Below, one piece after another: positions 1-37,485 of a stretch of DNA of 64,000 nucleotides. Every line of letters begins with the position of its first letter. Within the stretch, counting starts at the first letter, position 1. Source of the DNA: Lachnospiraceae bacterium (GTDB taxonomy: Bacteria > Bacillota > Clostridia > Lachnospirales > Lachnospiraceae); assembly GCA_900771955.1 (NCBI GenBank), contig CAAGPW010000167.1, forward strand, positions 15,951 through 79,950, written 5' to 3'. The notes beneath the pieces were generated by a model, which did not search any database, was not told the DNA's origin, and worked only from the letters and a program-made list of their open reading frames with translations. Both the position numbers and the translations under genes were made by a program.

Positions 1-874
1 AATAGGTGCTTTTCCCTTCCTGTCTGGATGCATATGCTGTCTGTCCCTCTTTGGTCAGACTGGCCGGTGTCTTCGTTGCAGGCTCTCCCTGTGCCGAGAA
101 ATCTCCTTCGTATGTAACTGCCTGTGAGCTGCGATTATGAAAAGCTTCCGATGCACCATTGCTCAGATCTGCAGTTCCCATGTGTACGGTAAATTTTCCT
201 TCGGGACGATTTCCCGCCGATAACGTTCCCTCATATCCCACATAGGTGCCATCTGTCATGTTCAGGCTTTCACTGATAAAAGCACCTGTCTGCTCCGCAG
301 CACATACATAATACCGGATCTCTGCATCCGTGGTCTGCACATAGAACTGTCTGCCATCCGCAAGCGGATATTCCACCGCGGTACAATGTTGTCCCAGTTC
401 GTCCGACAGAATCGTCATTTTCCACTCTCCTGCCTCTGCCGTTCCGGTATAATTTCTCTGTCCGATCAGAAGATCTGACAGCATCACAGTGTACCAGTCC
501 TCCGTCAGAATGCTGTCTACTGCACTCTCCACATTTTCTTCCGCCATGGCATCCAGCAGGCTCTTAGCCTTCTGCTGCACTTCCTCTGTATCCTGTGCCA
601 GTTCCACCGTAATCTCCGCCAGCTGCGCCTGTCTCTCCGTGGTATAATCCAAACGCTGCTCCCATTCCAAGGCATCCCTCTGTGCCAGCGGACTGTCAGT
701 CTCTGCTTCCGCCTTTGTATCCACAGCATTTTCCTGAACATTCTCTGCAGATGCCTCCGTGGCCTGCTCTACTACCGTCAGGGGCTGTGAATCCTGTGTT
801 CCGCAGGCAGTCAATGCCAAAGGTAACAGCAGGGCAAGAGTCGATGTTGCTTGTAAAATTTTCTTGTTTTTCAT
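1..874 (-). CDS. Partial lipoprotein. The 5' end and signal peptide are present; the gene runs off the window start.
   Basis: Reverse-strand ORF starts at the ATG at 874: MKNKKILQATSTLALLLPLALTACGTQ... The lipobox LTAC and hydrophobic signal region are visible. GC is about 55%, unlike the AT-rich block downstream. The frame was read by eye, so the extent is approximate. Confidence 0.45.
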   Translation of the reverse strand, partial: MKNKKILQATSTLALLLPLALTACGTQDSQPLTVVEQATEASAENVQENAVDTKAEAETDSPLAQRDALEWEQRLDYTTERQAQLAEITVELAQDTEEVQQKAKSLLDAMAEENVESAVDSILTEDWYTVMLSDLLIGQRNYTGTAEAGEWKMTILSDELGQHCTAVEYPLADGRQFYVQTTDAEIRYYVCAAEQTGAFISESLNMTDGTYVGYEGTLSAGNRPEGKFTVHMGTADLSNGASEAFHNRSSQAVTYEGDFSAQGEPATKTPASLTKEGQTAYASRQEGKSTY

Positions 875-1039
875 TCGAATTTTCTCTTTCTGTATTTTGG
901 TTTATATTATTATATCGGCAGGATTGGATCAGTGTATGAGAAGCTGTTCCAATTCTTTGTGTATTGCGTGAATCAGTGTATCATTTATAGAAATTGAATG
1001 CAATGGGCGCGTGTTAAATATTACATTATTTTGTCACTT

Positions 1040-1063
1040 AATGGATAATTCTTAGTTATCCAT
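1040..1063. promoter_or_regulatory. 24-bp perfect dyad aatggataattcttagttatccat, about 40 bp upstream of the GT2 start. Candidate operator or recombination site, copy 1.
   Basis: Seen directly. The half-sites atggataa and ttatccat are reverse complements around a 7-bp spacer. A near-identical copy (23/24) lies at 5401-5424 on the other strand. Confidence 0.4.
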
Positions 1064-1102
1064 CAGTTTTAGTACTAGAGGAAACGAGAGGAGAAATTGA
1101 TT

Positions 1103-2077
1103 ATGAAAATAAGTGTAATTATTACGACACACAATACGGAAAAGTATTTATTAAAATGCATGGATTCCATTATGAATCAAACTTTATCAGACATTGAAAT
1201 TATTATTGTAGATGATGCATCTACAGATGATACCCCCAAAACAGCTTCCCAACTGGCCTTGCGACACAAAAACATCAATTTTTTACCTCTATCTGCCAGT
1301 CTTGGTCCCGGGGGAGCAAGAAATAAAGCACTACAGCAGGCCACTGGAGAATACATATCTTTTATCGACAGCGATGACTGGATAGACTTAAATTATCTAG
1401 AGTTAATGTATAAGAAGGCACAAGAGGTAAATGCAGATATTGCTACTTGCAGTTTAATGCGTGAATACGATTATAATACAACTAATCCTATATATAAGTG
1501 TAAATATGATCAGACATATGTACTTTCTGGCGAAATCGCATTTCGTATTATGACAAACGAATATAATTATGGTATAAAATTTTTACCGTCAGCGTTGAAC
1601 AAAATATATCGGAAAACTTTTTTAACTGATAATTCATTAACATTCCCTGAACATATATTTTTTGAGGATCAGCCATTTTCATATAGCTGTACATTGGCTG
1701 CAAACAAAGTGGTCTGTGTTCCACATGTTGTTTATCACCATTATAAACGTTTAGGTTCTATTGTACAGTCATTTAGCAAAAAAAATATAGACGATATGAT
1801 GACTGCATATCAAATGATTAGAAATTACTTGAAAAGAAATAACGTTTATGAAAAATTCCGTTTTAACTATTATTCCTCTTTAGAACATTTTTATAATTTA
1901 ATTGTCCGACAAATATTTGAGTTTATCTCTGACGAAAATACTAAAAAAGATTATCTCAAATACTCTTTCAACCAATTAAAAAATGTTATTGATGTAGAAG
2001 AATATATCGATTTTTTATCTGCAGAAGAATTACGCAAACACATCCAGCCCAATATCACTGATACTACGATATATTAA
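1103..2077 (+). CDS. Family 2 glycosyltransferase (GT-A fold).
   Basis: N-terminus ISVIITTHNTEKYLLKCMDSIMNQTLSDIEIIIVDDASTDDT plus a DSDD (DxD) motif. RBS GAGGAGAA lies 7 nt upstream of the ATG at 1103 (the ORF track starts at the TTG at 1097). GC is very low (about 30%). Confidence 0.8.
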   Translation: MKISVIITTHNTEKYLLKCMDSIMNQTLSDIEIIIVDDASTDDTPKTASQLALRHKNINFLPLSASLGPGGARNKALQQATGEYISFIDSDDWIDLNYLELMYKKAQEVNADIATCSLMREYDYNTTNPIYKCKYDQTYVLSGEIAFRIMTNEYNYGIKFLPSALNKIYRKTFLTDNSLTFPEHIFFEDQPFSYSCTLAANKVVCVPHVVYHHYKRLGSIVQSFSKKNIDDMMTAYQMIRNYLKRNNVYEKFRFNYYSSLEHFYNLIVRQIFEFISDENTKKDYLKYSFNQLKNVIDVEEYIDFLSAEELRKHIQPNITDTTIY

Positions 2078-2088
2078 AAATAGTGTAT

Positions 2089-2123
2089 ATCCGCATGCTA
2101 TCGACTTAATATAGCATGCGGAT
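2089..2123. terminator. Bidirectional intrinsic terminator between the convergent GT2 and STAND genes.
   Basis: Perfect 13-bp stem atccgcatgctat / atagcatgcggat with a 9-nt loop. It has an A-rich 5' flank and a T-rich 3' flank. The stop codon of the minus-strand gene lies in the loop. Confidence 0.6.
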
Positions 2124-5100
2124 GTCTATATAGTATTTTTCTCTTTGAAGAGGATTTCCAATATAGAACTCCAAATTTTTTAGAGAGAATTCATATTGAC
2201 ATATGTATTTTTTATTATGTCTAATAATTGAAAGATATGTTTCCTTTTCAGAAAAAAATCCAGCTTCTCTTTCTAGTTCATTTAAAGCTGCCTCCTTTTT
2301 GTGATTATACAAGTGAACCAATGCTAAATAAGCTGCTTCAAAAGCAAGTTGGCGTGTTTTCATCGGTCTTTGTGTTTTCATATATTCCAATCTATATTGT
2401 TCACACAATGTTATTTCACCTTTGGATAACGCTAAAAGAGATGTCGCAAAAATGTGCCGGTTATAATCGTTGATAAAGTTTTCTTTTAAAATATTATTTG
2501 CTGCAATAACTTCACTAATATCAGAATCGTTGTTAACACAATCTAGGAATGTCACAGCGAACTTATACATATATTTGGTTTTGGTATCGCAATCCACCCT
2601 ATCTTCTACCATAGTATTAAATTTTCTAAGTAATTTTTCAGCCATCTGAAAATTATTTATCAGATTACATAAAAGCAATCTATACGTTGAAAACGGAATA
2701 TCCTTTTGGAAAAAATTCTCCTTTGCAGGAACTTTGTCCAAGCAATTAATTCCATTTTCGCTGTCAACAAACATCTTTACTGTATTTACAGCATATTTTA
2801 ACGATGGAAGGTCCCAATCAAACAGGATTATCCAATTATGTTGAATATTTGTTGGCATTTTATCAAAGCAAGCTATCTTTTCCAAAGCTTCCTGATATTT
2901 ATCATTCTCATAAAGTGAATTGATCATTTCCCATAATATGATGTAACGAATCTCCATCACAATATGCTCTGATACGAGCTTTGCCTCTGAATATAGTTTT
3001 TCAAATAAATCATATCCAGAAAAAGTGGTGCCTGCATTTGTATTTGCATATGTAAAATAAGCAAAAAATAGAAAATAATTTTGTATACTAATGTTCCTTT
3101 TAAACTGCTCTTTGGCAGATTCTGACAAAAAGATATTTTCCAAAATGTAATATATAGAATAATATTTTTGTTCAGCAAACAATTTTTGTATCTTGTTTAA
3201 TACATCCTCTATAGAGTCATCATCTCCACTTTTAAGTTCAAGTTGTAATTTTAAATGGTAAGCATCTTCAAAAGGAATATGTATGTCATTGTATGGTTTC
3301 AAAGTAAAATGGCTAATAAAAATCTCTCGATAGTATTCATGCCAACACACATAGAAATCATCATTATTCTTTCTTATCAATTCAGCATCTAATAGTAAAT
3401 CTAGCGTTTTTCTGGATTGTGGAATATCATGTAATAAGTTTCGTGATATTCCGGATCTGGTATAGTAAATACAAGAGCAAAGGGCTTCTGCATCCTCATT
3501 TTCTTTAAATATATTATTAAATTTAGATATTATTTCATTTTTTAAAAGTTCACAATGAACGAAAGATTGATATGCTAACTTAAAATCGCTGATACTTTTT
3601 ATGGAATCATTTAATGTTGTCAAATATTTCATAAAATACAATACTTCTATTACAGAACCAAAAAGTACTGTAATATGAGTTGTATCGAAATTAGTATACT
3701 TGTTAGTAAGAAGTGTGCGCATATCATCTTTTGTAACGGTTAACTCAACACTATCAAAAAATTGTCTTTTCCCAATTCTGTATTCTTCCAGTGAAATTTT
3801 CTGATGTGATGTCACAATACAAAAAATAGGATATTCACGACTTATTAATAGCCTAAGCATTTCCCTCAATACACCTTTATATTCTTTTGACAATTTTTGA
3901 ATATCATCCAAAATAATAATACGCGTATTTATGCATTTACTATCTAGGAAAATATCTCCCAATAGTTCTGGGTTTTGACTATATTTTACAAAATCATCAA
4001 TTTCCTTTGAGAAAAAAACAAAATCCCAAAATGTTTCTTTTAACTTCGGGAATTTTTTCCTCAAGTCATTTACATAGTTCAAATCTAAGTCTTCAAAATA
4101 TAAATAAGGAAAAAATAAATGAAATATAACTTTTTTGAGTACCTTTATGTCCTCTATTGTATCTCCTTTAAAAACATATATGTTACATAATATATCTTGT
4201 TTTTCTTCCATTAGCCTACTTATAAACAATTGTAGAACATATGATTTTCCGACCCCAGACTTTCCATATATTGAAGTTAATGAGAATATGCAATCAAGAT
4301 TTTTTCTGTAATCTAACAATTTACTGTATAACTGATCAACCACATTATCTTGGGAAGGAATGTCAAAAAACATATTTGCAGAATTTATAATTTTTATGGA
4401 TTGCGCCGGAATGATTTGTATTTTATTTTTATTTCTATTTTGTCCATTCTTATTTACTATTGAATATGTAATGGATATTGGCTGTAAAGTTTTATATTCA
4501 CCAAACGCATCCTTTTTTTGAATAGGTTCATATGTTAAATTCTCAGGTATAATGACATTAAAAATGAGGGGATTAATTCCTTTTTTTAGATGTAATTCCT
4601 TCGCATTTTCTGATATCAATTGAATATTATTCATGTCGGTCAATACGATATCTAAATCGCTTTGTACTGAAATTGAAAAACATATTTCATATTTAGCCCC
4701 AGTATATATAGTAGATAAGGGTTCTTGAAACAAATTATTTCCAAGGGTATAAAATGAAAGTTCTTCTATGCAATTAAATAGTGGTCTTTCTAATTTGTTA
4801 TATGTCTCTAAAGAACAAACAAACTTAGATTTGAAAAAAGCCTCTCCCTTATCCAAAATCCAATTTTCAAGGTGACTTTTGGTATAAAATTTCACCTCCC
4901 TGCAGCTATCAGAACATAATAGTGCTTCACGTATGTCAGCAATTGTTTTTGAAGCTATTTCTAAATTAGTCACAAAAATAATTTTTGAAATACCACGAGA
5001 TAAAATCGCACTTACAATAGTTGCATCCAGGCGATATCTACTTATTATTTTATTTTCAGAAGTATCAGTGGAATATTTAGCTTCCATCCACCAGACATCC

Positions 5101-5312
5101 ACATTGTTTGCATATCCTACAAATACTGCAAACTCTTGTTTTGGTTTTCCCAAAACTTCTCTGGAAAGAATTGCGTCATGATTTCTGTCTCTGCTCTTTT
5201 TTGTCTGTGCCCATTGGGAGCCATTTTGCGGCTCTTTTTCCGCAACAAACTCAACAGCCAATTCTTCAAATCCTTTGAAACCATTTATCAATTTTTCCCA
5301 TTCAATATTCAT
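2106..5312 (-). CDS. STAND-type P-loop NTPase (NACHT/NB-ARC-like) with a possible N-terminal PD-(D/E)xK (Mrr-like) domain and a long C-terminal helical repeat region. Candidate Avs-like antiphage protein.
   Basis: Walker A IYGKSGVGKSYVLQLF at about aa 350. Walker B RIIILDDIQKL at about aa 465. N-terminal ...NHDAIL...FAVFVGYANNVDVWWMEAKY fits a D...ExK nuclease core. About 600 aa of C-terminal alpha-helical repeats. Very AT-rich. Confidence 0.65.
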   Translation of the reverse strand: MNIEWEKLINGFKGFEELAVEFVAEKEPQNGSQWAQTKKSRDRNHDAILSREVLGKPKQEFAVFVGYANNVDVWWMEAKYSTDTSENKIISRYRLDATIVSAILSRGISKIIFVTNLEIASKTIADIREALLCSDSCREVKFYTKSHLENWILDKGEAFFKSKFVCSLETYNKLERPLFNCIEELSFYTLGNNLFQEPLSTIYTGAKYEICFSISVQSDLDIVLTDMNNIQLISENAKELHLKKGINPLIFNVIIPENLTYEPIQKKDAFGEYKTLQPISITYSIVNKNGQNRNKNKIQIIPAQSIKIINSANMFFDIPSQDNVVDQLYSKLLDYRKNLDCIFSLTSIYGKSGVGKSYVLQLFISRLMEEKQDILCNIYVFKGDTIEDIKVLKKVIFHLFFPYLYFEDLDLNYVNDLRKKFPKLKETFWDFVFFSKEIDDFVKYSQNPELLGDIFLDSKCINTRIIILDDIQKLSKEYKGVLREMLRLLISREYPIFCIVTSHQKISLEEYRIGKRQFFDSVELTVTKDDMRTLLTNKYTNFDTTHITVLFGSVIEVLYFMKYLTTLNDSIKSISDFKLAYQSFVHCELLKNEIISKFNNIFKENEDAEALCSCIYYTRSGISRNLLHDIPQSRKTLDLLLDAELIRKNNDDFYVCWHEYYREIFISHFTLKPYNDIHIPFEDAYHLKLQLELKSGDDDSIEDVLNKIQKLFAEQKYYSIYYILENIFLSESAKEQFKRNISIQNYFLFFAYFTYANTNAGTTFSGYDLFEKLYSEAKLVSEHIVMEIRYIILWEMINSLYENDKYQEALEKIACFDKMPTNIQHNWIILFDWDLPSLKYAVNTVKMFVDSENGINCLDKVPAKENFFQKDIPFSTYRLLLCNLINNFQMAEKLLRKFNTMVEDRVDCDTKTKYMYKFAVTFLDCVNNDSDISEVIAANNILKENFINDYNRHIFATSLLALSKGEITLCEQYRLEYMKTQRPMKTRQLAFEAAYLALVHLYNHKKEAALNELEREAGFFSEKETYLSIIRHNKKYICQYEFSLKNLEFYIGNPLQREKYYIDIRMLY

Positions 5313-5400
5313 TCTATATACATACTCCCATTTCCATAAACAATTGAAAAAATACGACTGATATTACGGGATTATCCATTAACGTTCTCAAAGTGAAGTA

Positions 5401-5424
5401 ACGGATAACTAAGAATTATCCATT
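5401..5424. promoter_or_regulatory. Second copy of the 24-bp dyad (aatggataattcttagttatccgt on the minus strand), about 90 bp upstream of the STAND gene start. An extra half-site attatccat lies at 5371-5379.
   Basis: Seen directly. 23/24 identical to the 1040-1063 copy. The AT-rich segment ends at about this position. Confidence 0.4.
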
Positions 5425-5427
5425 ATT

Positions 5428-7230
5428 TTATACTAATTTCGCCGCTAAATTCCGTAAAAATCTTTTCTGTTCCGTCATTTGCTCCCGGGCTATCACTTCA
5501 TCTGTTTTTCTTAACAGTTGACGCCCCTGCTCCAGCAGTTCCGTATTTTCCTGTTCGGCTCCCACTACTCTATAATAAATCACTTGATACAGCAGAGAAT
5601 TGATAACGCCATGCAGTGAAGAACCTTCCATATAATTATTTTTTGCCTGCAGAATATATCTGAGCGCTTCTTCCTTCCGGTCATAAATAAGCAGTTCTAT
5701 AACTCCCAGATTAATATAAGCCACATTGATCTCATCCAGTTCCACTGTATACTGGGCTCCCGCTTCACTAAAGCGCTTCCATAGATCCCATAGATCCTGC
5801 AGTTTTTTTCTATATAAAACTTTGAAAACCTGAAAAAACATACGGCTGCTATATACATATACCGTCAAAATCATTTTTCCAATATGATTTAAAGGAGTAA
5901 TGCAGTCCCAGCCTACGATTTCTTTCGAATCCAACGCCTTAAGCATGTGTTTCCGGTATTTATAGAATTGCAGCCACTCTGTAACTGCCCATCCGTATTT
6001 CTTATCTGCAACCCATTTGTCGGATCTGGCCAGCGCGGTTTTGTTGATATGTACATAAAAATGCTGGATATTCTCCTGCCGGTTTGCTCTGACACAGTTC
6101 TGAAAACCATAGTACCCAAGATATTGATTTGTGCCCTCTGGATCCATCAGGGAGAGTAACCGTTTTGTCCATCCCTCGTCGAATACCTCCTCAGGATTTA
6201 TGCCCAGCAGAAAAAGTGTGGCTAATATGCTTGCCTCTCTGAATTGTTCCGGGTATGGGCGGATGCTTTTCTCCAATCTATCTACCCAGCAAAATTTTTC
6301 TTCCTCTTTTATGTCCTCTTTAGCAATTCTCACAGAGAACAGTTCTGACAATTTCTCAACAAAATGTTCCGTTTGGGCCTTTACCGTATAGTTCTCCGCA
6401 AAACAACCTGTCAGCGTTTTCTCATTACTCCATGGATCCATAATCTCCATCTTATCGTCAAATCCATGCCGCACATAGATTCCCATGGAGGTATTGTTTC
6501 TGGAAATGCTTTGAAAAAAAGGATTTACATCTAAATAATCCCCTCCGCCATATCCTAAAAAAACGAAGCAATGTTTCTTCTGTATCCATCCTCTCAGTGT
6601 CTCCACAAATTGTTGTTTCAAAGGAATCTTTACTGTGGAAAGTGTTGCTCCTATTTTGGCAATATCCGTAGCGATCCCGTGAATATAGTATAGCTGTCCG
6701 CTCCCTGCGAAATCGCTTCGAAAGGTATAGATCCCTTCTCTTTGTTCCTCGTACAGTTCATAACCATCTTCAAAATACAGATTCTTGTACGCCTTCTGGA
6801 TACATATATCATAGTTTGTCGTAACTATATTGGCTCCCAAATGCAGCAGTGCCGCCAACATATAATGACAATAATTCGGTGGTGTCTCCTGAAAACTCTC
6901 CAGACCGTGAATTACCGAATACTGATTTTGTAATTCATCTTTTTCGAAGATGCGGAATCCTTCCAGCACCGTCTCCAGTCTGGGAATTCCCGACAAATAC
7001 ACATTTTCATCCATGATCGTCCGAAAGGTCTCCTGAGACTTCCGCCAGTTTTGCAATATCCTTTCCGTATATTTTATCCCACAGGCCTGCTCCAACAGCG
7101 TTTTCGTAAGTTCATTTCCCAACGGCAAACAGGACGGAGTATTGTTGTCAATTCCGGCTCCCACCCAGAAGACCAGTCCCTCCGTCCCATAGCTACTTAT
7201 TTTTTCAAACAATTCTTTTATCATAAGCAT
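5428..7230 (-). CDS. SIR2_2-family (SIR2-like, ThsA-type NADase fold) domain protein with a roughly 330-aa C-terminal helical domain. Candidate defense effector.
   Basis: Hallmark motifs in order: LVFWVGAGID...LPLGNEL, IVTTNYDICIQ, YYIHG, FVFLGYGGGDYLD. GC is intermediate (about 43%). Confidence 0.65.
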   Translation of the reverse strand: MLMIKELFEKISSYGTEGLVFWVGAGIDNNTPSCLPLGNELTKTLLEQACGIKYTERILQNWRKSQETFRTIMDENVYLSGIPRLETVLEGFRIFEKDELQNQYSVIHGLESFQETPPNYCHYMLAALLHLGANIVTTNYDICIQKAYKNLYFEDGYELYEEQREGIYTFRSDFAGSGQLYYIHGIATDIAKIGATLSTVKIPLKQQFVETLRGWIQKKHCFVFLGYGGGDYLDVNPFFQSISRNNTSMGIYVRHGFDDKMEIMDPWSNEKTLTGCFAENYTVKAQTEHFVEKLSELFSVRIAKEDIKEEEKFCWVDRLEKSIRPYPEQFREASILATLFLLGINPEEVFDEGWTKRLLSLMDPEGTNQYLGYYGFQNCVRANRQENIQHFYVHINKTALARSDKWVADKKYGWAVTEWLQFYKYRKHMLKALDSKEIVGWDCITPLNHIGKMILTVYVYSSRMFFQVFKVLYRKKLQDLWDLWKRFSEAGAQYTVELDEINVAYINLGVIELLIYDRKEEALRYILQAKNNYMEGSSLHGVINSLLYQVIYYRVVGAEQENTELLEQGRQLLRKTDEVIAREQMTEQKRFLRNLAAKLV

Positions 7231-7302
7231 TTTCCTATAAAAACATGTTCTCTGTTATTATAATACTACATCTTTTCCGCTTATGGTCTTTCTATTTATC
7301 GG

Positions 7303-8937
7303 CTATTTCTTTCGTTTTATCGAAATTCGTGGTTTCTCTTCATCTTTCTCTACGCTCAGCCCGTCTCTGGCGCCATAATAAAAGGCAATCCACATCAACG
7401 GAATCGTGATCTGCCCCAGGGTTACCGTCATTTCCGCCATTCCAAAGCATGCAATGGCGATTAGGAATACGGCACACTCCCATCGACCCTTACGGCACAT
7501 TCCCAACGCCTTAATCAGACTGTACAAATACATGCCCAGGAACAAAATTCCCACCGGGATTCCATAGCTGTAGGCCATCTGGAGAAACATATTGTGTGCA
7601 TGCTCATAATAGACGTCTTCCGTCAGGTAGAAGCCAAGAAAGAACCGGTTATGCCCTCTCATATTCAGATGATGCAAGAAATACGTGTAAATAATTTTCC
7701 TTGCATCCGTAGATGAATGCAGCGGATCCAGTCCCTCGATGTTAAATGGATTCTCCGGACTTTCGCCCGCACTCGCCTCCTGCGCATGTACCTTCATACC
7801 GCCCAGCAGATCCTGCATTTTCTCCATCATAACATCCGTATCGATTCCAACGATCTCCAGAATCCGGTTCACATCATGTTCCATTACCTCTTCAAATGAA
7901 ACGTATTTCCAGCTATTCCAAGGGTCAAAGGAGCACACGCTGACACCTTCCACGTATTCCCCCTCAAACCAGATCGGATGGTGCAAAATCGTTGGGAGAT
8001 AGCGGATGCAGCCGTAGACCACCGGAAAAGTGATCGTAATGCAAAGAATCATTGCCACACCATGGATCACCAGCCTGTAAAAAGATTTACAGCAAAAAAT
8101 ATCATACGCTACCATCAGAAAGAACCCCGTAACGATCACGCCGAGCAGCGGAGCTCGTCCACCGGTATAGACAATAAAGCTGACCATTCCCGCCGACATC
8201 AAAAAATAGAAACCCCGGATCCACCATTTTTTCTTCTGTTCCACGGCCTTCCTCCACCGGAGTAAAAAGGCACAAAATACAATCATATAAAATAATCCGT
8301 TCTGCGTGGTTCCGGTGTACATGCCCCGATACCGCACGGCATCGTACGGCCGGAATCCAAAGGCCAGGATCTGCTGAATGAAAAACCATACGATAAGTCC
8401 GATGGTCATTCCATTGAATAAATCCTCCGTTCGCTCTTCCGGTATCCCGATCAGGTAAAGTCCGCCGAAGACCAGCAGATACCATAGCGGCAAAATACCG
8501 CCATACACCGATATCTGCATCAGAAAGAACAGCAACACCATACACCAGAAAAACGGCTGTCGCATCTTCTTCCGGATCGCCATTTTCTCGTTCTTACGCT
8601 CTCTGACCATATAGATGATCAGATAACTCCACACCGTCAGATTCAGTACTCCAGAGATCCACTGCCCCGTGTATTTCCAGCAGAACTTTCCCACCACACA
8701 TGCCGCCACTGTCAGCAGTGCGCATACCGGAGTCCAGCGTAAATACACCTTCTCCCGAAATTTGCTCAGATCCATTCCAGGAAGCAGCATAAATGCAATG
8801 ACTACCCCCGTCAGATTTGCAAATATCATCTGTATTTGTCCCAGCGCGCTTCCCCGGCGCTGATCGATCCAGCCCAATACCAGAAAACATACCATGTACC
8901 AGAGAATGTATTTATTCGTCTTCAACCATTGTTTCAT
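7303..8937 (-). CDS. O-antigen ligase/Wzy_C-family polytopic membrane protein with a periplasmic loop domain.
   Basis: About 10 TM helices, with the segment FLQMAYSYGIPVGILFLGMYLYS and a large soluble loop. RBS AAAGGAG lies upstream of the ATG at 8937 (MKQWLK...). The ORF track starts further upstream at 9021. Confidence 0.55.
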   Translation of the reverse strand: MKQWLKTNKYILWYMVCFLVLGWIDQRRGSALGQIQMIFANLTGVVIAFMLLPGMDLSKFREKVYLRWTPVCALLTVAACVVGKFCWKYTGQWISGVLNLTVWSYLIIYMVRERKNEKMAIRKKMRQPFFWCMVLLFFLMQISVYGGILPLWYLLVFGGLYLIGIPEERTEDLFNGMTIGLIVWFFIQQILAFGFRPYDAVRYRGMYTGTTQNGLFYMIVFCAFLLRWRKAVEQKKKWWIRGFYFLMSAGMVSFIVYTGGRAPLLGVIVTGFFLMVAYDIFCCKSFYRLVIHGVAMILCITITFPVVYGCIRYLPTILHHPIWFEGEYVEGVSVCSFDPWNSWKYVSFEEVMEHDVNRILEIVGIDTDVMMEKMQDLLGGMKVHAQEASAGESPENPFNIEGLDPLHSSTDARKIIYTYFLHHLNMRGHNRFFLGFYLTEDVYYEHAHNMFLQMAYSYGIPVGILFLGMYLYSLIKALGMCRKGRWECAVFLIAIACFGMAEMTVTLGQITIPLMWIAFYYGARDGLSVEKDEEKPRISIKRKK

Positions 8938-9095
8938 GTTACAATGCTCCTTTAGTGCCACTTTGAGTTTCAATGTAGAATACATATTTATGTTATATGT
9001 AAGAAATCCTTTTGAAAACATCTTGTTTTTTTATTTTTTTTTGCTATTCTTTTATAAGTAGGCAATAGTATGGTGTCACGGGAGATTAATATACC

Positions 9096-15263: not shown

Positions 15264-15620
15264 TAATATACTGCGGACGCCCCTTCACTTCAAAATTCAT
15301 TTTTCCAATATACAGGGCGATCACTGCCAGATTTATCACAATAATATCCGTAAACAGAAATCCCAGTGCCACCATAGCATATACAACGGTTTTATGCTGA
15401 ATGCTGTAACACCGTCTGTGGCCAGATGAAGCATTTTAGACATATTGTATTTTGAATATCCCGCCGCTCTTTCATGCCCTTCAAAGTAAACATAATCATG
15501 CTGGTATCCCAGAGAAGGAAATATCCCTCGCATAAAAATACTCTGCTCCTTGTATTTCCGCAACTCTTTCAATACCGGGTTGGCGACTTTCAAGATAACC
15601 GATATCACGTTTGATGTATG
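15264..15620 (-). pseudogene. 3' remnant of a GtrB-like polyprenyl-phosphate glycosyltransferase (GT2).
   Basis: The frame encodes YVYFEGHERAAGYSKYNMSKMLHLATDGVTAFSIKPLY, which matches the conserved C-terminal region of GtrB/ArnC-type enzymes. There is no intact N-terminal GT domain. It abuts the IS remnant. Confidence 0.4.
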
Positions 15621-16151
15621 CTAACTGTTTACGAATGATTGCTCTGATTTTCTTAGTGCTGCGTTTCTTTGCTTTCGCAAGTGCAAGGTAGTTCTTTCTG
15701 GCTTGCCTGCGATACATACGTGGTCTTGAAAATCCATAACTTTTACAGAAACGGATGATGATAGTCTCCAGTTTTTCTCTGGCTTCATTGAGCAATGAGA
15801 AATCCTGTTCAGGTTCTGTTTTTGATTCGCCATCTCCTAATACGGATTTTCAGTCAATTGATCCACCAATTCTCTGTCAGAATACTGATACTTGGTTTGG
15901 ATGATTAGCGAACCAAGGGCAAGACGCAGAGTTTTTGCAACGCGTCCATTCTTTCCTTTGAACAGACGGGAGTATTTCTTTTCGAATATTTCCCATGGGA
16001 TGTCATCTTCCATCTTTACCCATCTGTTTTCAGGATTCATATGAAGCCCTATTGGCTGGTTAAAACTGAGGAAGTTGCTTTGTGTATTATCAGTACATTT
16101 ATACATTGATTTTTCACTCCTGTAAGGGTACTTTTCTATAGAAAACTGCAC
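15496..16151 (-). mobile_element. Fragmented IS1182/IS5-superfamily transposase, degraded into 3 or more ORF pieces.
   Basis: The N-terminal piece PIGLHMNPENRWVKMEDDIPWEIFEKKYSRLFKGKNGRVAKTLRLALGSLIIQTKYQYSDRELVDQLTENPY is a typical DUF772 transposase N-terminus. The downstream pieces are out of frame. Confidence 0.6.
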
Positions 16152-16389
16152 GTAAAAAGATTTGATTACTTATAAAACCGTGCACTTTATTATATCATTT
16201 TCGAGTGAAAAATGCAGTAAAATCAATGGTTTCAAGCTGTTTTTCTATTAATCAGCAGACACTAATTAGATTATTTAAGGCTCATTTTTTGAAACATAGC
16301 GACAGTTATGTTTATTTCTTGCGTTCATTTTTACGTCCAAGAATAATATTTACTTTTCAAAGTTCAATGCCAGAGTTTTACTGGCATGA

Positions 16390-16602
16390 TCACTCAAGAT
16401 TCCGAGAGATCATTGCATTATTCGTATGGAAAATATGCGCACCATACTTGTGGAAATTGATGCCTTCTATCTTCTCTGTATAGATATTTCCCGCAATGTT
16501 TGGCCTCTTATCGATGACCAGAACAGACTTTCCGTGCGCCTTCGCCTGCTACGCAAATGTAGCTCCGTATAAGCCAGAGCCAACCACTAAATAATCATAC
16601 AT
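16390..16602 (-). pseudogene. glf: 5' fragment of UDP-galactopyranose mutase (glf) with an in-frame TAG at codon 18 and a truncation.
   Basis: Manual translation gives MYDYLVVGSGLYGATFA*QAKAHGKSVLVIDKRPNIAGNIYTEKIEGINFHKYGAHIFHTNN. The intact glf at 36367 reads MKYDYVIVGSGLFGAVFAHEAKTVGKKILVIDKRPHIGGNIYTERIEGINVHKYGAHIFHTNN. Confidence 0.6.
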
Positions 16603-24080: not shown

Positions 24081-24393
24081 TTTCGTAAGCGCCAAATATT
24101 CCCGTGGCTAGCCAAAAACCCCCTCTAAAAAATACACTTTTCATTGCCTGCGCCATACCTTTGCCACCAGATGTATTGCTCATGGACTCAATTATAAGGT
24201 CGTCAGCGAACTTCTGGGACACAGCACGATCAATATTACTTTGAATATGTATGTTCATCCACAGATGTCTGAAAAATAAAAGTGCATTGAAACGATATAT
24301 ATGGAATAGATGGAAATATACAAATATATGGAAAAATATGGTATATTATGAAAAAACTGTTGTCGAAATAAAGTCGCAATTTTCTGTCAAATA

Positions 24394-33198: not shown

Positions 33199-34664
33199 GG
33201 AAGAGTAACAAGGAACAGCACACCGGCAACAGTGTAGGAAGCAATTACATATTTAGTCTCATTTATCAGGTGGTGAACCTGCTGGTACAGGTGATTCTGC
33301 TGCGATATCTGACGATGGTCATTGGGGCAAAGGGAATTGGGATTCAGAGCTATACCAATTCGGTGGTGTCCTATTTTGTCATGTTCAGTGCCTTGGGAAT
33401 CAACTGGTATGGGCAGAAAGAAATAGCACTTCGACTGGGGGATAAAAAAAGTCTGTCCCAGTGCTTTTGGAAACTGTTTACACTCAAGGCAGTATGGTCG
33501 TTGATTGTACTTCCGGTGTATGGAATTCTGATTATTGCAAGCAGCGAATACAGGATCTATTACATAGCCATGTTTTTCACATATTTTGCAGGTTTGCTGG
33601 ATATTTCCTGGCTGTATCAGGGACTGGAACGTTTTGACATCATTGCCATCCGCAATACAGTTATCAAAGTATTGGGAATGATTCTGACATTTGCTTTTGT
33701 GAAAACGGAAGAAGATGTCCTACTTTACGTGGTTTTTGTTGCTATTTCCAATTTCGCGGGAAATGCGTCCATGTGGTTAAAATTGTCGAAAATGATTCTT
33801 CCTCCCGGAAAGGACTGTTTTCACTTCCGGGAATGTATCCGACCGGCGGTGCAGTATTTTATACCGACAATCGCTACAACACTATATCTGACCATGGACA
33901 AGACTATGATCGGTATGATCACAGCAGACAATTATGAAAACGGATATTATGAACAGGCGATTCAGATCACAAATATGCTAAAGACTATTGTACTGTCCTA
34001 CAATGCAGTTATGGTCTCAAGAATGGCTTTTTTATTTGCACAAAAGGAAGAGAAACATATCAAAGAACATTTTGCAAGTTCCCGGGAATTGATTCTGACG
34101 ATCAGTTGGCCGATAGTATTTGGTTTTGCCATGGTGGAAAGGGAATTTGTCACTTTATATTTCGGTGCGGGAAATGAGAGAATCGGTGATGTGCTATTGG
34201 TATTTGCACCGGTGATCTTGATCGTTGGACTCAGCAATATGGTGGAAAGCCATGTTATTACACCATTAAATAAACGAGAGATTGGTAACAAAATCGTGAT
34301 TATCGGAGCAATCGTCAATTTTGTTCTGAATCTGCTGCTGATCCGTCCGGCTGGAGCGGTGGGAGCTGCTGGAGCCTCCGTGATTTCCGAAGTGATTGTG
34401 ACGATTCTTTACGTCAAAAATTCCATGGGAATGTTGACATGGAAAGATGTTTTTCAATCCAGTATCAAAAAAATACTTGCAGCGTTCATGATGTCTGTAG
34501 TGATCTGTCTGCTAAAACAAGTTATGAACGTAAGCGTGATAGCACTTGCGGTACAAATCGTATTAGGCAGTATAACATATATAGGTGTCCTTATTTTATT
34601 AAAAGATAGTTATATAACTAATAAAATTTCATTTTTTTTCAGAGGGAAGGAGTTTAAAAAATGA
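33192..34664 (+). CDS. Wzx-type polysaccharide flippase (MOP superfamily).
   Basis: About 12 TM helices with the typical oligosaccharide flippase layout. Confidence 0.7.
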   Translation: MVRKSNKEQHTGNSVGSNYIFSLIYQVVNLLVQVILLRYLTMVIGAKGIGIQSYTNSVVSYFVMFSALGINWYGQKEIALRLGDKKSLSQCFWKLFTLKAVWSLIVLPVYGILIIASSEYRIYYIAMFFTYFAGLLDISWLYQGLERFDIIAIRNTVIKVLGMILTFAFVKTEEDVLLYVVFVAISNFAGNASMWLKLSKMILPPGKDCFHFRECIRPAVQYFIPTIATTLYLTMDKTMIGMITADNYENGYYEQAIQITNMLKTIVLSYNAVMVSRMAFLFAQKEEKHIKEHFASSRELILTISWPIVFGFAMVEREFVTLYFGAGNERIGDVLLVFAPVILIVGLSNMVESHVITPLNKREIGNKIVIIGAIVNFVLNLLLIRPAGAVGAAGASVISEVIVTILYVKNSMGMLTWKDVFQSSIKKILAAFMMSVVICLLKQVMNVSVIALAVQIVLGSITYIGVLILLKDSYITNKISFFFRGKEFKK

Positions 34665-36349
34665 CATTACAGCAGTATATTAAAGATGCATATTATTCAA
34701 TTAAAAAATTACTAAATGTTTTTTTTGTATTTTCAGCAGCTATTATGAGTTTTATTATGACTCTCAATTATTCCGTTTTTATAGAATATAATGGAACCAC
34801 TGGTATATCATACAATGTGCAACCTTTCTTTGCTGTAGCTGCTGCAATAATTACGTTGCCTTTATATCTATACCTTATAATAAAAAAGAACTTTGTAGAA
34901 TCATTAGAATTTGATAAATCACCTTGTATTTTTTTTGTTTCAGGTGCTGAAGCTGTTTTACTAATGTATCAAATGTTACAAGATACTTTTAAAAATATGT
35001 CTTCTATTATGCTATCTATTCATCTTGATTCAAATTTGTATCAGAATTTTTGCTATAATGTACTAACTTTATTATGTATTGTATCAGTATTGGCTTTATT
35101 TATATTTTCTTTTTATGTAAATAAATTATTATTCTGTTTTATAAAAGAGTATTGTCAAAAAGCTGATATTTATGAAAAAATATTCTTTGGAGTTGGAATT
35201 TCCATTTGTCTTTCTCTTATTTGTGTATTTTATACAAAAAGTAATGCTTTATGGTCTTCCTTGGATTTAGTTTATCAAACCGATTCTATGCTTGTATATG
35301 ACCATTATTACCCTGTCTTTACTTATGGTTATGACTTTGACTGGGACATTGGAATTGGCGGAATCAGGCATCCGTTAGCCACTTTTTTACTATATCCAAT
35401 TAATTTAATCGTAGTATTTTTATCAAATATGCTGTTCTGGATTCCAAATATTAGACCAATTTTATTTGCTTTATTCCAATCAATTATGTTAATTATAACA
35501 GTTATTACATTAAAACGTATTGTCAAAAGTAATTGGGTCTACTTTATTTTTACTGCTTCTTTTCCTTTTTTATTTTTTACTATTTTTATCGAAAAATATC
35601 AAATTGCCGTTTTGCTAATTGTAATGTTTGTATATGTAAAGCTTACGGATGATAGGAAAGAACTTCACGATTATTTTCTAATAGCTGCAAGCGGTATGAT
35701 GATAACATCTGCAATATATGGTTTATTCTGTGGTAACATAAATAAACTGAAAGAAAAAATTATAGAATATTTTAGAATCTTCTTTCTTTTCATACTCACA
35801 TTAATTGGAACTGGGCGAATAAATTACTTGATTAATTTCAGATATTTGTTAAATCAAAATTCCGTCATGTTTTATAAGGATTTGCATACTAAAATATCTT
35901 ACGCCGAAAGATTTAATGGTTTTACAAATTTAATTGCTTCAAGTTTTATTCCTGTTCAATATGAGGTAATGGGCGAACAAGGTAATCAGCTATACTGGCC
36001 TCACTTAATAGATAAAATAAATATATTAGGCTTATTAGTATTCCTTTTTATTATTGTAACAATTTTTTGCATGCGAAAAGAAAAAAATGTGCAACTTTTA
36101 TCTTTATGGTTCATATTTGCATTTGTCCAATTTATAATTACAGGTTTTGGCTCTAATTGCGAACCCTTATTTTCTCTTTATTTTTCTTGGGCAATAGTTG
36201 CTCTTTTAATTATAGGTATCAATCATTTTGTTAAAAAACCTATTTTGCAAGTTGTTTTGTACGGTTCGTTACTATGCGGAATGTGCTATACAAACTTTAC
36301 ACATATTACGTTTTTACTACAATTTCTTATTGAGAAAGCACCATTATAA
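34661..36349 (+). CDS. Polytopic membrane protein, putative Wzy-type polymerase.
   Basis: 562 aa, more than 12 TM helices, extremely AT-rich (about 28% GC). Lies between the flippase and glf. Confidence 0.45.
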   Translation: MTLQQYIKDAYYSIKKLLNVFFVFSAAIMSFIMTLNYSVFIEYNGTTGISYNVQPFFAVAAAIITLPLYLYLIIKKNFVESLEFDKSPCIFFVSGAEAVLLMYQMLQDTFKNMSSIMLSIHLDSNLYQNFCYNVLTLLCIVSVLALFIFSFYVNKLLFCFIKEYCQKADIYEKIFFGVGISICLSLICVFYTKSNALWSSLDLVYQTDSMLVYDHYYPVFTYGYDFDWDIGIGGIRHPLATFLLYPINLIVVFLSNMLFWIPNIRPILFALFQSIMLIITVITLKRIVKSNWVYFIFTASFPFLFFTIFIEKYQIAVLLIVMFVYVKLTDDRKELHDYFLIAASGMMITSAIYGLFCGNINKLKEKIIEYFRIFFLFILTLIGTGRINYLINFRYLLNQNSVMFYKDLHTKISYAERFNGFTNLIASSFIPVQYEVMGEQGNQLYWPHLIDKINILGLLVFLFIIVTIFCMRKEKNVQLLSLWFIFAFVQFIITGFGSNCEPLFSLYFSWAIVALLIIGINHFVKKPILQVVLYGSLLCGMCYTNFTHITFLLQFLIEKAPL

Positions 36350-36366
36350 TGCATGGAGATTAAAGC

Positions 36367-37485
36367 ATGAAATACGATTATGTTATAGTAGGAAGTGGTT
36401 TATTCGGAGCAGTATTTGCTCACGAAGCCAAAACTGTCGGCAAAAAAATTTTAGTTATTGATAAGCGTCCTCATATCGGCGGAAATATATACACGGAACG
36501 TATTGAGGGCATTAATGTCCACAAGTATGGCGCACACATTTTCCATACAAATAATCACACAGTATGGAATTACGTGAATAATTTTGCAAATTTCAATCGT
36601 TTCACCAATTCACCTGTTGCAAATTATAAAGGCGAACTGTATTCCCTCCCATTTAATATGTACACCTTTAACAAGATGTGGGGAGTTATCACCCCCGATG
36701 AGGCGGCTGCTAAAATTAACGAGCAACGCGCTGAAATCATCGGCATTCCGTCCAATCTGGAAGAACAGGCTATTTCTCTTGTAGGACGCGATATTTTTGA
36801 AAAATTGATCAAAGGCTACACTGAGAAACAATGGGGCCGGGATTGCAAAGATCTCCCCCCCTTTATTATCAAACGTCTGCCTGTACGCCTGACATTTGAT
36901 AATAATTATTTTAACGCACTTTATCAGGGAATTCCTATCGGTGGGTATACGCATTTGGTGGAAAACCTGTTAAAGGGTATCGAGGTTCAACTTAATACCG
37001 ATTATTTTGACAACAGAAATCAATTTGACGAGATAGCTGATAAAATCATTTACACGGGGCCTATAGACGCTTTCTTTGAATATCGTTTAGGTGCACTTGA
37101 ATATCGCTCCGTCCGCTTTGAAAATACGCTGTTAGATCAATCCAATTTTCAGGGAAATGCCGCTGTAAATTACACGGACAGAGAAACTCCCTGGACAAGA
37201 ATTATTGAGCATAAATGGTTTGAATTCGGCAAAGATGAAAACGGAAATGATTTAACCAAGACAGTTATCAGCAAAGAATACAGCTCTGAGTGGAAAATAG
37301 GCGATGAGCCATACTATCCTGTCAATGATGAAAAAAATACAGAACGATATCAAAAATACAAACAACTTGCACTGCAAAAAAAGAATATTATTTTTGGCGG
37401 ACGTTTAGGCGAGTATAAATATTATGATATGGATGCCGTTATTGCCGCTGCATTGGATTTATGTGCCCGAGAACTACATTGCTAA
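36367..37485 (+). CDS. glf: UDP-galactopyranose mutase.
   Basis: MKYDYVIVGSGLFGAVFAHE FAD motif. Canonical Glf throughout. Confidence 0.9.
   Translation: MKYDYVIVGSGLFGAVFAHEAKTVGKKILVIDKRPHIGGNIYTERIEGINVHKYGAHIFHTNNHTVWNYVNNFANFNRFTNSPVANYKGELYSLPFNMYTFNKMWGVITPDEAAAKINEQRAEIIGIPSNLEEQAISLVGRDIFEKLIKGYTEKQWGRDCKDLPPFIIKRLPVRLTFDNNYFNALYQGIPIGGYTHLVENLLKGIEVQLNTDYFDNRNQFDEIADKIIYTGPIDAFFEYRLGALEYRSVRFENTLLDQSNFQGNAAVNYTDRETPWTRIIEHKWFEFGKDENGNDLTKTVISKEYSSEWKIGDEPYYPVNDEKNTERYQKYKQLALQKKNIIFGGRLGEYKYYDMDAVIAAALDLCARELHC

Follow-up and report, generated by a model that had tools for sequence, protein, structure and literature searches.

The DNA considered here is a stretch of 64,000 nucleotides from a Lachnospiraceae bacterium (assembly GCA_900771955.1, contig CAAGPW010000167.1), hereafter called the window, and the subject is an AT-rich block near its left end. 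Inside the block lie two convergent genes, one for a family-2 glycosyltransferase (GT2) and one for a STAND protein of 1068 amino acids (aa), and each end is marked by one copy of a short, nearly palindromic sequence, or dyad, termed dyad-L on the GT2 side and dyad-R on the STAND side. An earlier note on this DNA had taken the block for a horizontally acquired cassette, and its dyads for either recombinase sites or operators. Both proposals were followed up by comparing the window with loci in stretches fetched from other genomes and metagenomes, which are numbered with the prefix L; the features of the locus itself are collected in Table 1.

Table 1. Features of the cassette and its flanks, with positions in the window
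Feature	Position	Strand	Remarks
Left conserved flank, 316-aa gene (5' part; cut by the window start)	1-873	-	outside the cassette; GC 0.51
Dyad-L	1040-1063	+	AATGGATAATTCTTAGTTATCCAT; core GGATAATTCTTAGTTATCC at 1043-1061; putative tyrosine-recombinase crossover site; GT2 start codon 39 nt downstream
Cargo gene 1, soluble family-2 glycosyltransferase, 324 aa	1103-2077	+	Pfam Glycos_transf_2, E = 3.4e-36
Hairpin between the convergent genes	2089-2123	.	stem 2089-2101 / 2111-2123, 13 bp, perfect; 9-nt loop
Cargo gene 2, 1068-aa STAND protein	2106-5312	-	Avs4-like architecture (predicted)
Second, weaker dyad	5359-5377	.	TGATATTACGGGATTATCC; 2 arm mismatches; just inside dyad-R, STAND side
Dyad-R	5401-5424	-	inverted partner of dyad-L, 23/24 identical (one mismatch, …CCGT)
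Right conserved flank, SIR2-like gene, 598-600 aa	5428-7230	-	Pfam SIR2_2, E = 2.7e-7
Right-flank 572-aa gene	7303-9021	-	upstream of and co-directional with the SIR2-like gene; no family match

Composition sets the block apart from its surroundings. The GC content is 0.26-0.36 over about 1000-5000 and about 0.50 to the left, so that the drop to about 30% claimed in the earlier note and its left boundary both stand; the recovery claimed on the right is only partial, with 0.37-0.42 (about 40%) across the SIR2-like gene and 0.45-0.49 beyond it. Codon usage follows the same line, and the GC content at third codon positions is 0.27 in the GT2 gene and 0.24 in the STAND gene against 0.45-0.59 in neighbouring genes. 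The convergent pair is indeed split by a strong hairpin, as the earlier note had it: the fold of the RNA is worth -26.2 kcal/mol (z = -6.2), the stem runs into the final codons of the STAND gene, and its sequence, ATCCGCATGC…GCATGCGGAT, is kept in the homologous cassettes of L061, L065, and L066. A scan with a terminator consensus did not pick it up. It is likely a bidirectional terminator shared by the two genes.

The near-identical inverted dyads at both block ends, also reported before, were recovered, and a search of the 64 kb with up to 3 mismatches returned these two copies only, while 100 shuffled sequences gave none. Their format is GGATAAT-N5-ATTATCC, that is, a symmetric 7-5-7 arrangement. 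The seven central bases, TTCTTAG, are not palindromic and are identical in both copies; therefore, each copy has a defined polarity. The two are mutually inverted, and both are oriented alike relative to their own inner gene. The STAND start codon follows dyad-R at a distance of 88 nt, and the dyad itself lies 3 nt past the stop codon of the SIR2-like gene; no direct repeats of the kind left by target-site duplication flank the window dyads. A Fur box, a LexA/Cheo box, and a DnaA box were considered by eye as the identity of the dyad and were rejected because neither spacing nor arms fit.

The function of the dyads becomes visible when related loci are compared. Between the window and L076, a sister strain at the same locus, identity is 94% on the right, from 9070 inward to 5403, where the dyad-R core has its inner edge, and 88% on the left, from the inner edge of dyad-L (1063) outward as far as position 1. 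The DNA enclosed by the dyads is unrelated in the two: the 4337 bp with the STAND and GT2 genes are matched in L076 by about 1.76 kb, in which the gene of a methyltransferase converges with that of a 328-aa protein of no known family. L075 has the same SIR2-like flank and dyad and then a third cargo, with a different P-loop NTPase, and the end of its cassette is identical to that in L058, where it stands behind another flank. Homology breakpoints at dyad-R were found in L007, L075, L076, and L082. The last of these presents the reverse situation, as it carries the window cassette at 99.43% identity over 4382 bp, from dyad to dyad (left end at 1040), between flanks without similarity to the window, L001, or L076; the window cassette is also present in L083, with the apparent 3' end of a recombinase gene outside the GT2-side dyad. 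Because the outside differs up to the core in one case and the inside differs right after it in the other, the joints are restricted to the 19-bp core. At the window locus, cassettes take each other's place, with breakpoints inside this core.

With sister-strain homology that stops at both dyads and a 99.4%-identical copy in foreign flanks, the horizontally acquired cassette of the earlier note is well founded. That note had also envisaged that related strains might carry either other cargo between the dyads or an empty site with a single dyad: the former is found (L076, L075), and the latter was looked for at the window locus and not found. A partly decayed version of the cassette with the methyltransferase and the 328-aa protein (L076 11845-13549) is also found in Waltera acetigignens, again behind a dyad (L010 3247-4398), and in the metagenome contigs L025 and L045 this Waltera flank is joined to two other cargos.

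Replacement is only one of two kinds of rearrangement; the other is inversion, and the orientation of a dyad-bounded segment is the sole difference within each of three independent pairs of assemblies. L076 and L077, sister strains at the window locus, have flanks that are 100% identical over 7.9 and 6.1 kb, and 1807 bp that are reversed at 100% identity; either orientation of this cassette was seen in six more contigs from other samples. L066 and L067 have flanks that are 99.9% identical and a homologous STAND-GT2 cassette of 4311 bp that is reversed at 100% identity, its STAND and GT2 proteins being 56% and 76% identical to those of the window. In L040 and L027, flanks more than 99.5% identical accompany 1957 bp reversed at 99.9%. 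Such cassettes undergo inversion between their dyads, and as zero substitutions over about 16 kb stand beside an inversion, flipping is evidently rapid in comparison with point mutation. It is at the dyads that DNA rejoins, both in inversions and in cassette replacements.

STAND-GT2 pairs were found in five unrelated contexts, in four of which a recombinase gene adjoins the cassette, the fifth being the sister strains at the window locus, where it is about 5 kb off. The homologous pairs are 56-71% identical in STAND and 76-86% in GT2, the two genes co-diverge, and the cassettes have 27-30% GC in every host, next to flanks of 31-48%. For many homologues the longest contig is 4.3-4.5 kb, and cassette-length contigs end exactly at the dyads in L002, L068, and L083. 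In L068 the repeat is only 18 nt long, shorter than the k-mer of the Logan assembler, which we take to be 31, so a break at this point would mean branching junctions inside the sample itself. A search with the STAND protein (tblastn) in plasmid and phage collections gave no match and identified no carrier.

Which enzyme could make these joints? An exact search for the 19-nt core returned 8 species-representative genome stretches, mostly of Lachnospiraceae, and 47 metagenome stretches; the core was absent from viral contigs in the same kind of search. Among these stretches, retrieved by the dyad alone and without selection for a recombinase, 3 of the 8 and 20 of the 47 contain a gene for an Xer-like tyrosine recombinase of about 301-308 aa, mostly abutting the dyad. 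In several loci of the low-GC group, its stop codon or last codons lie inside the outer arm (…GGA TAA). A family of Xer-like recombinases is genetically linked to the dyads.

The dyad-linked recombinases have Phage_integrase and SAM_1 (SAM-like) domains and align over their full length to the XerD of E. coli (1a0p), their best solved match (E = 2.6e-33), with the R, K, HxxR, and H…Y motifs intact. Pairwise identity among them is 44-69%, and a C-terminal KHPR(N/K) tail is common to them. With the XerC/XerD equivalog models they score about 245 bits (246 against a cut-off of 335, 240 against 330), and with the integron-integrase models of NCBIfam 105-109 bits (cut-off 265) and 64-72 bits (cut-off 435). 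The family has at least 8000 matches at E ≤ 1e-20; the named ones among the matches listed are mostly from Lachnospiraceae and bear generic names only. In Roseburia sp. 499, whose genome is complete, a single perfect dyad follows the recombinase gene after 74 nt, with no partner dyad within 10 kb. In the sister strains of the window the gene (18661-19581 in L076) lies about 5 kb beyond the cassette, a position taken by another gene in the window strain. The window does contain a short open reading frame (ORF) with C-terminal tyrosine-recombinase motifs (…HCLRHTFAT…LLGHSTINITLNMYVHPQMSEK*) at 24124-24258 on the + strand, preceded by a stop codon and placed at the start of a polysaccharide gene cluster. 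It was rejected as the cognate enzyme, being a C-terminal fragment of a different integrase subfamily that ends in …YVHPQMSEK and has no KHPR tail.

Dyads reached by way of protein homology keep the arms GGATAAT and ATTATCC. Their 5-base centres, however, vary among loci (TCTTA, CAAAT, CATGT, TGAAT, TCTGT) and are the same within each pair. Conserved arms with a spacer that matches only between partners are the expected pattern of a crossover site of tyrosine recombinases and are not that of an operator. Different spacers also occur close together. The recombinase-proximal dyads at 19668-19686 in L076 and 10995-11013 in L071 have the spacers TAGGA and TCTGT, against TCTTA in the cassette dyads nearby, a mismatch that would prevent recombination with those cassette dyads. 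L082 has an extra dyad, GGATAATATAGGATTATCT, at 6227-6245, 1.7 kb beyond the cassette and 39 nt upstream of the next gene (6266-7372), and this one region may hold an array of sites that differ in spacer.

Like the polarity of the dyads and the closeness of dyad-R to the SIR2-like gene, the weaker dyad beside dyad-R goes unmentioned in the earlier note. It overlaps a half-site, AATGGATAAT, at 5371-5380 and is carried along by the cassette in both L082 and L083; it may serve for accessory binding. In a 71%-identical cassette (L061, 9852-9940 and 14267-14357; also L062 and L063), each end has an inverted repeat of about 93 nt, in which two dyads, CTGATAATTGAATATTATCGG and GGATA(A/T)TTTTTAGTTATC, stand about 20 nt from each other. 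Their arrangement suggests a core site paired with an accessory one, and the weaker dyad of the window may be the degenerate equivalent of the second.

The identical 19-nt core, spacer included, was also encountered in contigs of soil, peat, and sediment type (L008, L023, L026, L032, L034, L042, L049, L057, and L059), one of which is an Acidobacteriota metagenome-assembled genome. The GC content beside the dyad is 0.43-0.61 in these contigs, and the dyad adjoins Xer-like recombinases of 30-46% identity. About 90 nt separate the 3' end of the recombinase gene from the dyad, on its opposite side, the polarity relative to that gene is opposite, and there is usually no gene directly behind the dyad.

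We put at about 85% the probability that the dyads are the crossover sites of an Xer-like recombinase and that the AT-rich DNA between them is a mobile cassette. Of the two roles offered by the earlier note, it is that of recombinase sites that the inversions, the breakpoints within the core, and the linkage to an Xer-like recombinase gene speak for. The core site would consist of two inverted arms of about 7 bp around a short asymmetric spacer and would serve a dedicated family of Xer-like enzymes of about 306 aa, common in Lachnospiraceae; the 4.34 kb between the dyads would then be a self-contained two-gene cassette that travels between hosts. Inversions and replacements alike would be catalysed by the dyad-linked recombinase family, which in the window strain would have to act in trans because none is encoded in the window. 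Replacement could proceed by two site-specific crossovers, one per dyad, with an incoming segment that is itself flanked by dyads, in analogy to recombinase-mediated cassette exchange. As the window sites are inverted, recombination between them would flip the cassette without excision, so that it would stay in place.

What would a flip change? Cargo start codons lie 16-90 nt inside the repeats, and the genes outside often read into the dyad, as seen for recombinase, SIR2-like, AAA_23, and GT4-conflict genes; in the window, the 572-aa gene comes first, then the SIR2-like gene, and then dyad-R. A flip could thus swap which of the two convergent genes receives transcription from outside, an intracellular Avs-like sensor in one state and a glycosyltransferase in the other. 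This expression toggle is the most speculative step, and we advance it tentatively, with doubt somewhat outweighing belief. The wider proposal, to which we give even odds, is that Lachnospiraceae, and possibly other phyla, possess a new platform, in which a dedicated recombinase and a dyad of about 19 bp both shuttle double-ended, two-gene cassettes from one chromosomal site or strain to another and flip them as a phase-variable either/or switch of expression, with Avs-like STAND proteins, TIR proteins, other NTPases, methyltransferases, and glycosyltransferases as cargo.

A number of observations weigh against this picture or parts of it. The cassette of the window itself was seen in a single orientation relative to the SIR2-like and left flanks; inversion was seen in the sister cassette at the locus, in the STAND-GT2 homologue with 56% STAND identity, and in the L040/L027 segment only, and the contig breaks at the dyads of the window cassette in L002 and L013 are suggestive at most. 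No recombinase of the family is encoded in the 64-kb window or in about 10 kb past its left end, and recombinase binding and catalysis at the dyad are predictions. The exact-core searches fix the spacer, so that its conservation among those matches is by construction. The pairs of dyad and recombinase in soil and peat mostly have no recognisable cassette, and may have another role. Concerning the toggle, a consensus scan for sigma-70-like promoter sites returned 37, with 35.1 +/- 6.5 in shuffled sequences, and this lack of an excess gives it no direct support.

Other explanations have to be set against these facts. The dyads might only be operators or promoter elements of a shared transcription factor that co-regulates the cargo, the rearrangements being incidental. 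Their position 39-88 nt upstream of the cargo start codons with the same polarity would suit this role, as would a near-palindrome typical of sites for dimeric helix-turn-helix proteins and arms with the -10-like GATAAT, and a weak promoter match, ATTACA-18-GATAAT (1020-1049), even uses the outer arm of dyad-L. Yet at least five comparisons place breakpoints inside the 19-bp core, dyad-bounded segments are inverted at 100% identity, and the dyad is linked to a recombinase gene and to no regulator gene; moreover, spacers that differ among loci and match in pairs bespeak a constraint of recombination. As an exclusive explanation, the operators of the earlier note are contradicted by the rearrangements and keep a very small probability; a regulatory side effect of the recombinase binding at the dyad may still occur. 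RecA-dependent homologous recombination between short inverted repeats, with no dedicated recombinase involved, is likewise very improbable. Inverted repeats can drive RecA-dependent inversions, and the window cassette has no recombinase gene beside it, but the repeats measure 18-30 bp in most loci, which is short for efficient recombination by RecA. The same arm sequence, in addition, recurs at unrelated cassettes and in different phyla, a recombinase gene abuts the site in many loci, and swaps of non-homologous cargos cannot come from homology inside the cassettes.

Least probable of all, to the point of being nearly discounted, is a non-autonomous transposon, akin to a miniature inverted-repeat transposable element or an insertion sequence, with the dyads as terminal inverted repeats and mobilisation by a transposase. 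It is true that terminal inverted repeats bound a low-GC insert present in several contexts; however, the dyads have no target-site duplication next to them, and no cassette has a transposase inside it or nearby; both ends are spacer-containing palindromes in their own right, like the core sites of tyrosine recombinases; and the dyads stay at the locus when the cargo changes, which makes them part of the site no less than of the insert. The closest rival, to which we still assign a slight probability, is that the cassettes exploit the housekeeping XerC/XerD-dif machinery, like IMEX or the pdif modules of Acinetobacter. The recombinases are Xer-like, with XerD as best solved match, and the inner arms of the dyad, ATAA…TTAT, resemble the pattern of dif sites. 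Modules flanked by inverted Xer sites are, besides, known (PMC7399989, PMC6449649). The enzymes score, nonetheless, about 245 bits where the equivalog cut-offs are 330-335, and they are encoded beside cassettes in polysaccharide and defence regions. The symmetric 7-5-7 dyad suits a single recombinase, unlike the 11-6-11 XerC/XerD site, and the gene of Roseburia sp. 499, at 2.65 of 3.38 Mb, is not obviously at the terminus.

The cargo of the window deserves a description of its own. The GT2 enzyme is of the soluble, GT-A type, and its matches to the NCBIfam models of polysaccharide glycosyltransferases are below threshold. For the STAND protein, sequence models offer little: PADLOC gave no match at E ≤ 0.01 (nor did it for GT2), NCBIfam gave nothing, the Pfam matches (AAA_22, AAA_16, Mrr_cat) are all below threshold, and a sequence profile of the family yields only weak P-loop matches in the PDB. 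An AlphaFold model built with 32 homologues is confident (pLDDT 83), and its best structural matches are a STAND-TPR protein, phage-portal-bound Avs4 (8dgf), MalT, NLRs, CED-4, and ORC/Cdc6. The N-terminal domain matches Mrr/MspJI-type PD-(D/E)xK nucleases, with Avs4 8dgf among the best structures, and D42, N44, D46, and E77-A-K79 (D…ExK), together with the Walker A motif, are invariant across the family. The predicted order is an N-terminal nuclease, a beta-rich linker (about 175-310), a STAND/AAA+ NTPase, and C-terminal helical repeats. By this model the architecture is Avs4-like, with the same order of an N-terminal Mrr-like nuclease and STAND, although sequence identity to Avs4 is about 12% overall and no Avs model of PADLOC matches; the beta-rich domain is an addition with respect to Avs4, and the protein is always paired with GT2.

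Other dyad-bounded convergent pairs combine a pentapeptide-repeat protein with an ATP-grasp/radical-SAM protein, a TIR protein with small NTPases, or two proteins of no known family. These cassettes adjoin an NB-ARC/TPR STAND protein and a 'GT4-conflict' glycosyltransferase.

The flanks of the window cassette belong to a variable region beside cell-wall polysaccharide genes. The host is probably similar to Gallintestinimicrobium, the name borne by the ≥90% cluster that contains its GDP-mannose dehydratase. On the left, the gene cut by the window start is called as 316 aa in L001/L003, and its 88% identity to the sister-strain flank extends up to dyad-L. On the right, the SIR2-like gene, whose start is placed by gene callers at 598 aa, reads toward dyad-R, is 94-98% identical in strains with other cargos, and is kept together with the 572-aa gene in the sister strains. 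Neither product has a PADLOC or NCBIfam match, and the 572-aa protein has none in Pfam. About 60 homologues of the SIR2-like protein were found at 25-38% identity, often on contigs of 2-5 kb. The two genes may form a new SIR2-based defence pair, and some of the homologues may themselves be cassette cargo.

Two features farther into the window complete the description. A second AT-rich block, at 34000-37000 (GC 0.27-0.36), lies within a polysaccharide biosynthesis cluster on the + strand (about 24.5-37.5 kb), with no such dyad nearby. The region of about 15300-16600 (1119-1889 in L012), between the genes of an 833-aa protein and an acyltransferase, has no long ORFs, and among its short ones the metagenome annotation records a DUF772 (transposase) match; it is probably a decayed insertion sequence.

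How does this system relate to those already known? The ingredients are familiar singly, as inversion switches and shufflons, as integron cassettes that store defence genes, and as pdif modules. The pdif modules of Acinetobacter are bounded by inversely oriented Xer sites, occur in many contexts, are exchanged between replicons, and are invertible (PMC6449649, PMC7399989, PMC9947245). Cassettes of the window type share the inversely oriented sites and the multiple contexts. They differ in that pdif modules use 28-bp XerC/XerD sites (11-6-11) and the housekeeping pair of enzymes, and reside on plasmids with resistance and toxin-antitoxin genes, whereas here a symmetric dyad of about 19 bp and a dedicated single Xer-like paralogue would serve cassettes that are chromosomal in Lachnospiraceae; the cargo, too, is distinct, being a convergent pair, often of defence or conflict type, in which each gene starts directly behind a site.

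Tyrosine recombinases also operate inversion switches and shufflons, such as Rci/sfx of R64, the pneumococcal PsrA/CreX system at hsdS, and RecV of C. difficile (PMC7096588, PMC11852207, PMC6837544). The likeness is that short inverted repeats and a tyrosine recombinase flip a segment, so that two states are found in otherwise identical genomes. Known switches, however, turn round a promoter (about 0.1-0.8 kb) or exchange the ends of genes, while the present cassettes flip 1.8-4.4 kb with two whole convergent genes, are replaceable, and are found in unrelated loci and hosts. Sedentary chromosomal integrons, for their part, store anti-phage cassettes (bioRxiv 10.1101/2024.07.02.601686, PMC12614218), and again a tyrosine recombinase and its site form a platform on which promoterless cassettes are captured, exchanged, and expressed from outside. 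Here, in contrast, there are no folded single-strand sites of the attC type, which are imperfect palindromes of 55-140 nt, but duplex-type dyads of about 19-30 bp; the units are double-ended, with two inverted sites and convergent genes, and not one-site units arranged head to tail; the outcome includes inversion; and the integron-integrase models stay far below their cut-off (105-109 against 265 bits).

What seems new, then, is the combination: a dedicated Xer-like paralogue, a 19-bp dyad, and chromosomal, convergent two-gene cassettes with conflict cargo that flip and swap. No published description of it was found in the openly accessible literature, where the site sequence itself was also searched for, so that an earlier report is possible; neither Milman 2023 (PMC9881135) nor Kaur 2020 (PMC7159879) describes such a system.

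All of this has consequences beyond a single locus. A 2025 paper (PMC12529663) gives the function of the recombinases that neighbour anti-phage genes as unknown. Recombinases in defence islands now acquire a testable role, for which the family, the site, and the substrates can be named, and the inversions and swaps are visible in public assemblies. DNA between two such dyads becomes a candidate for a conflict gene pair, and several cargos have no known family. Even a nuisance of assembly finds an explanation, since branching junctions at the dyads would yield cassette-length contigs that end there. A compact recombinase with a 19-bp site, capable of cassette exchange, could also become a tool for genome engineering in Clostridia.

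If the proposed platform is real, it would be a functional counterpart of integrons for the immune and surface-modification genes of gut Firmicutes. Lachnospiraceae, abundant commensals of the gut, may exchange such genes, and vary them within a clone, without plasmids or phages as obvious carriers.

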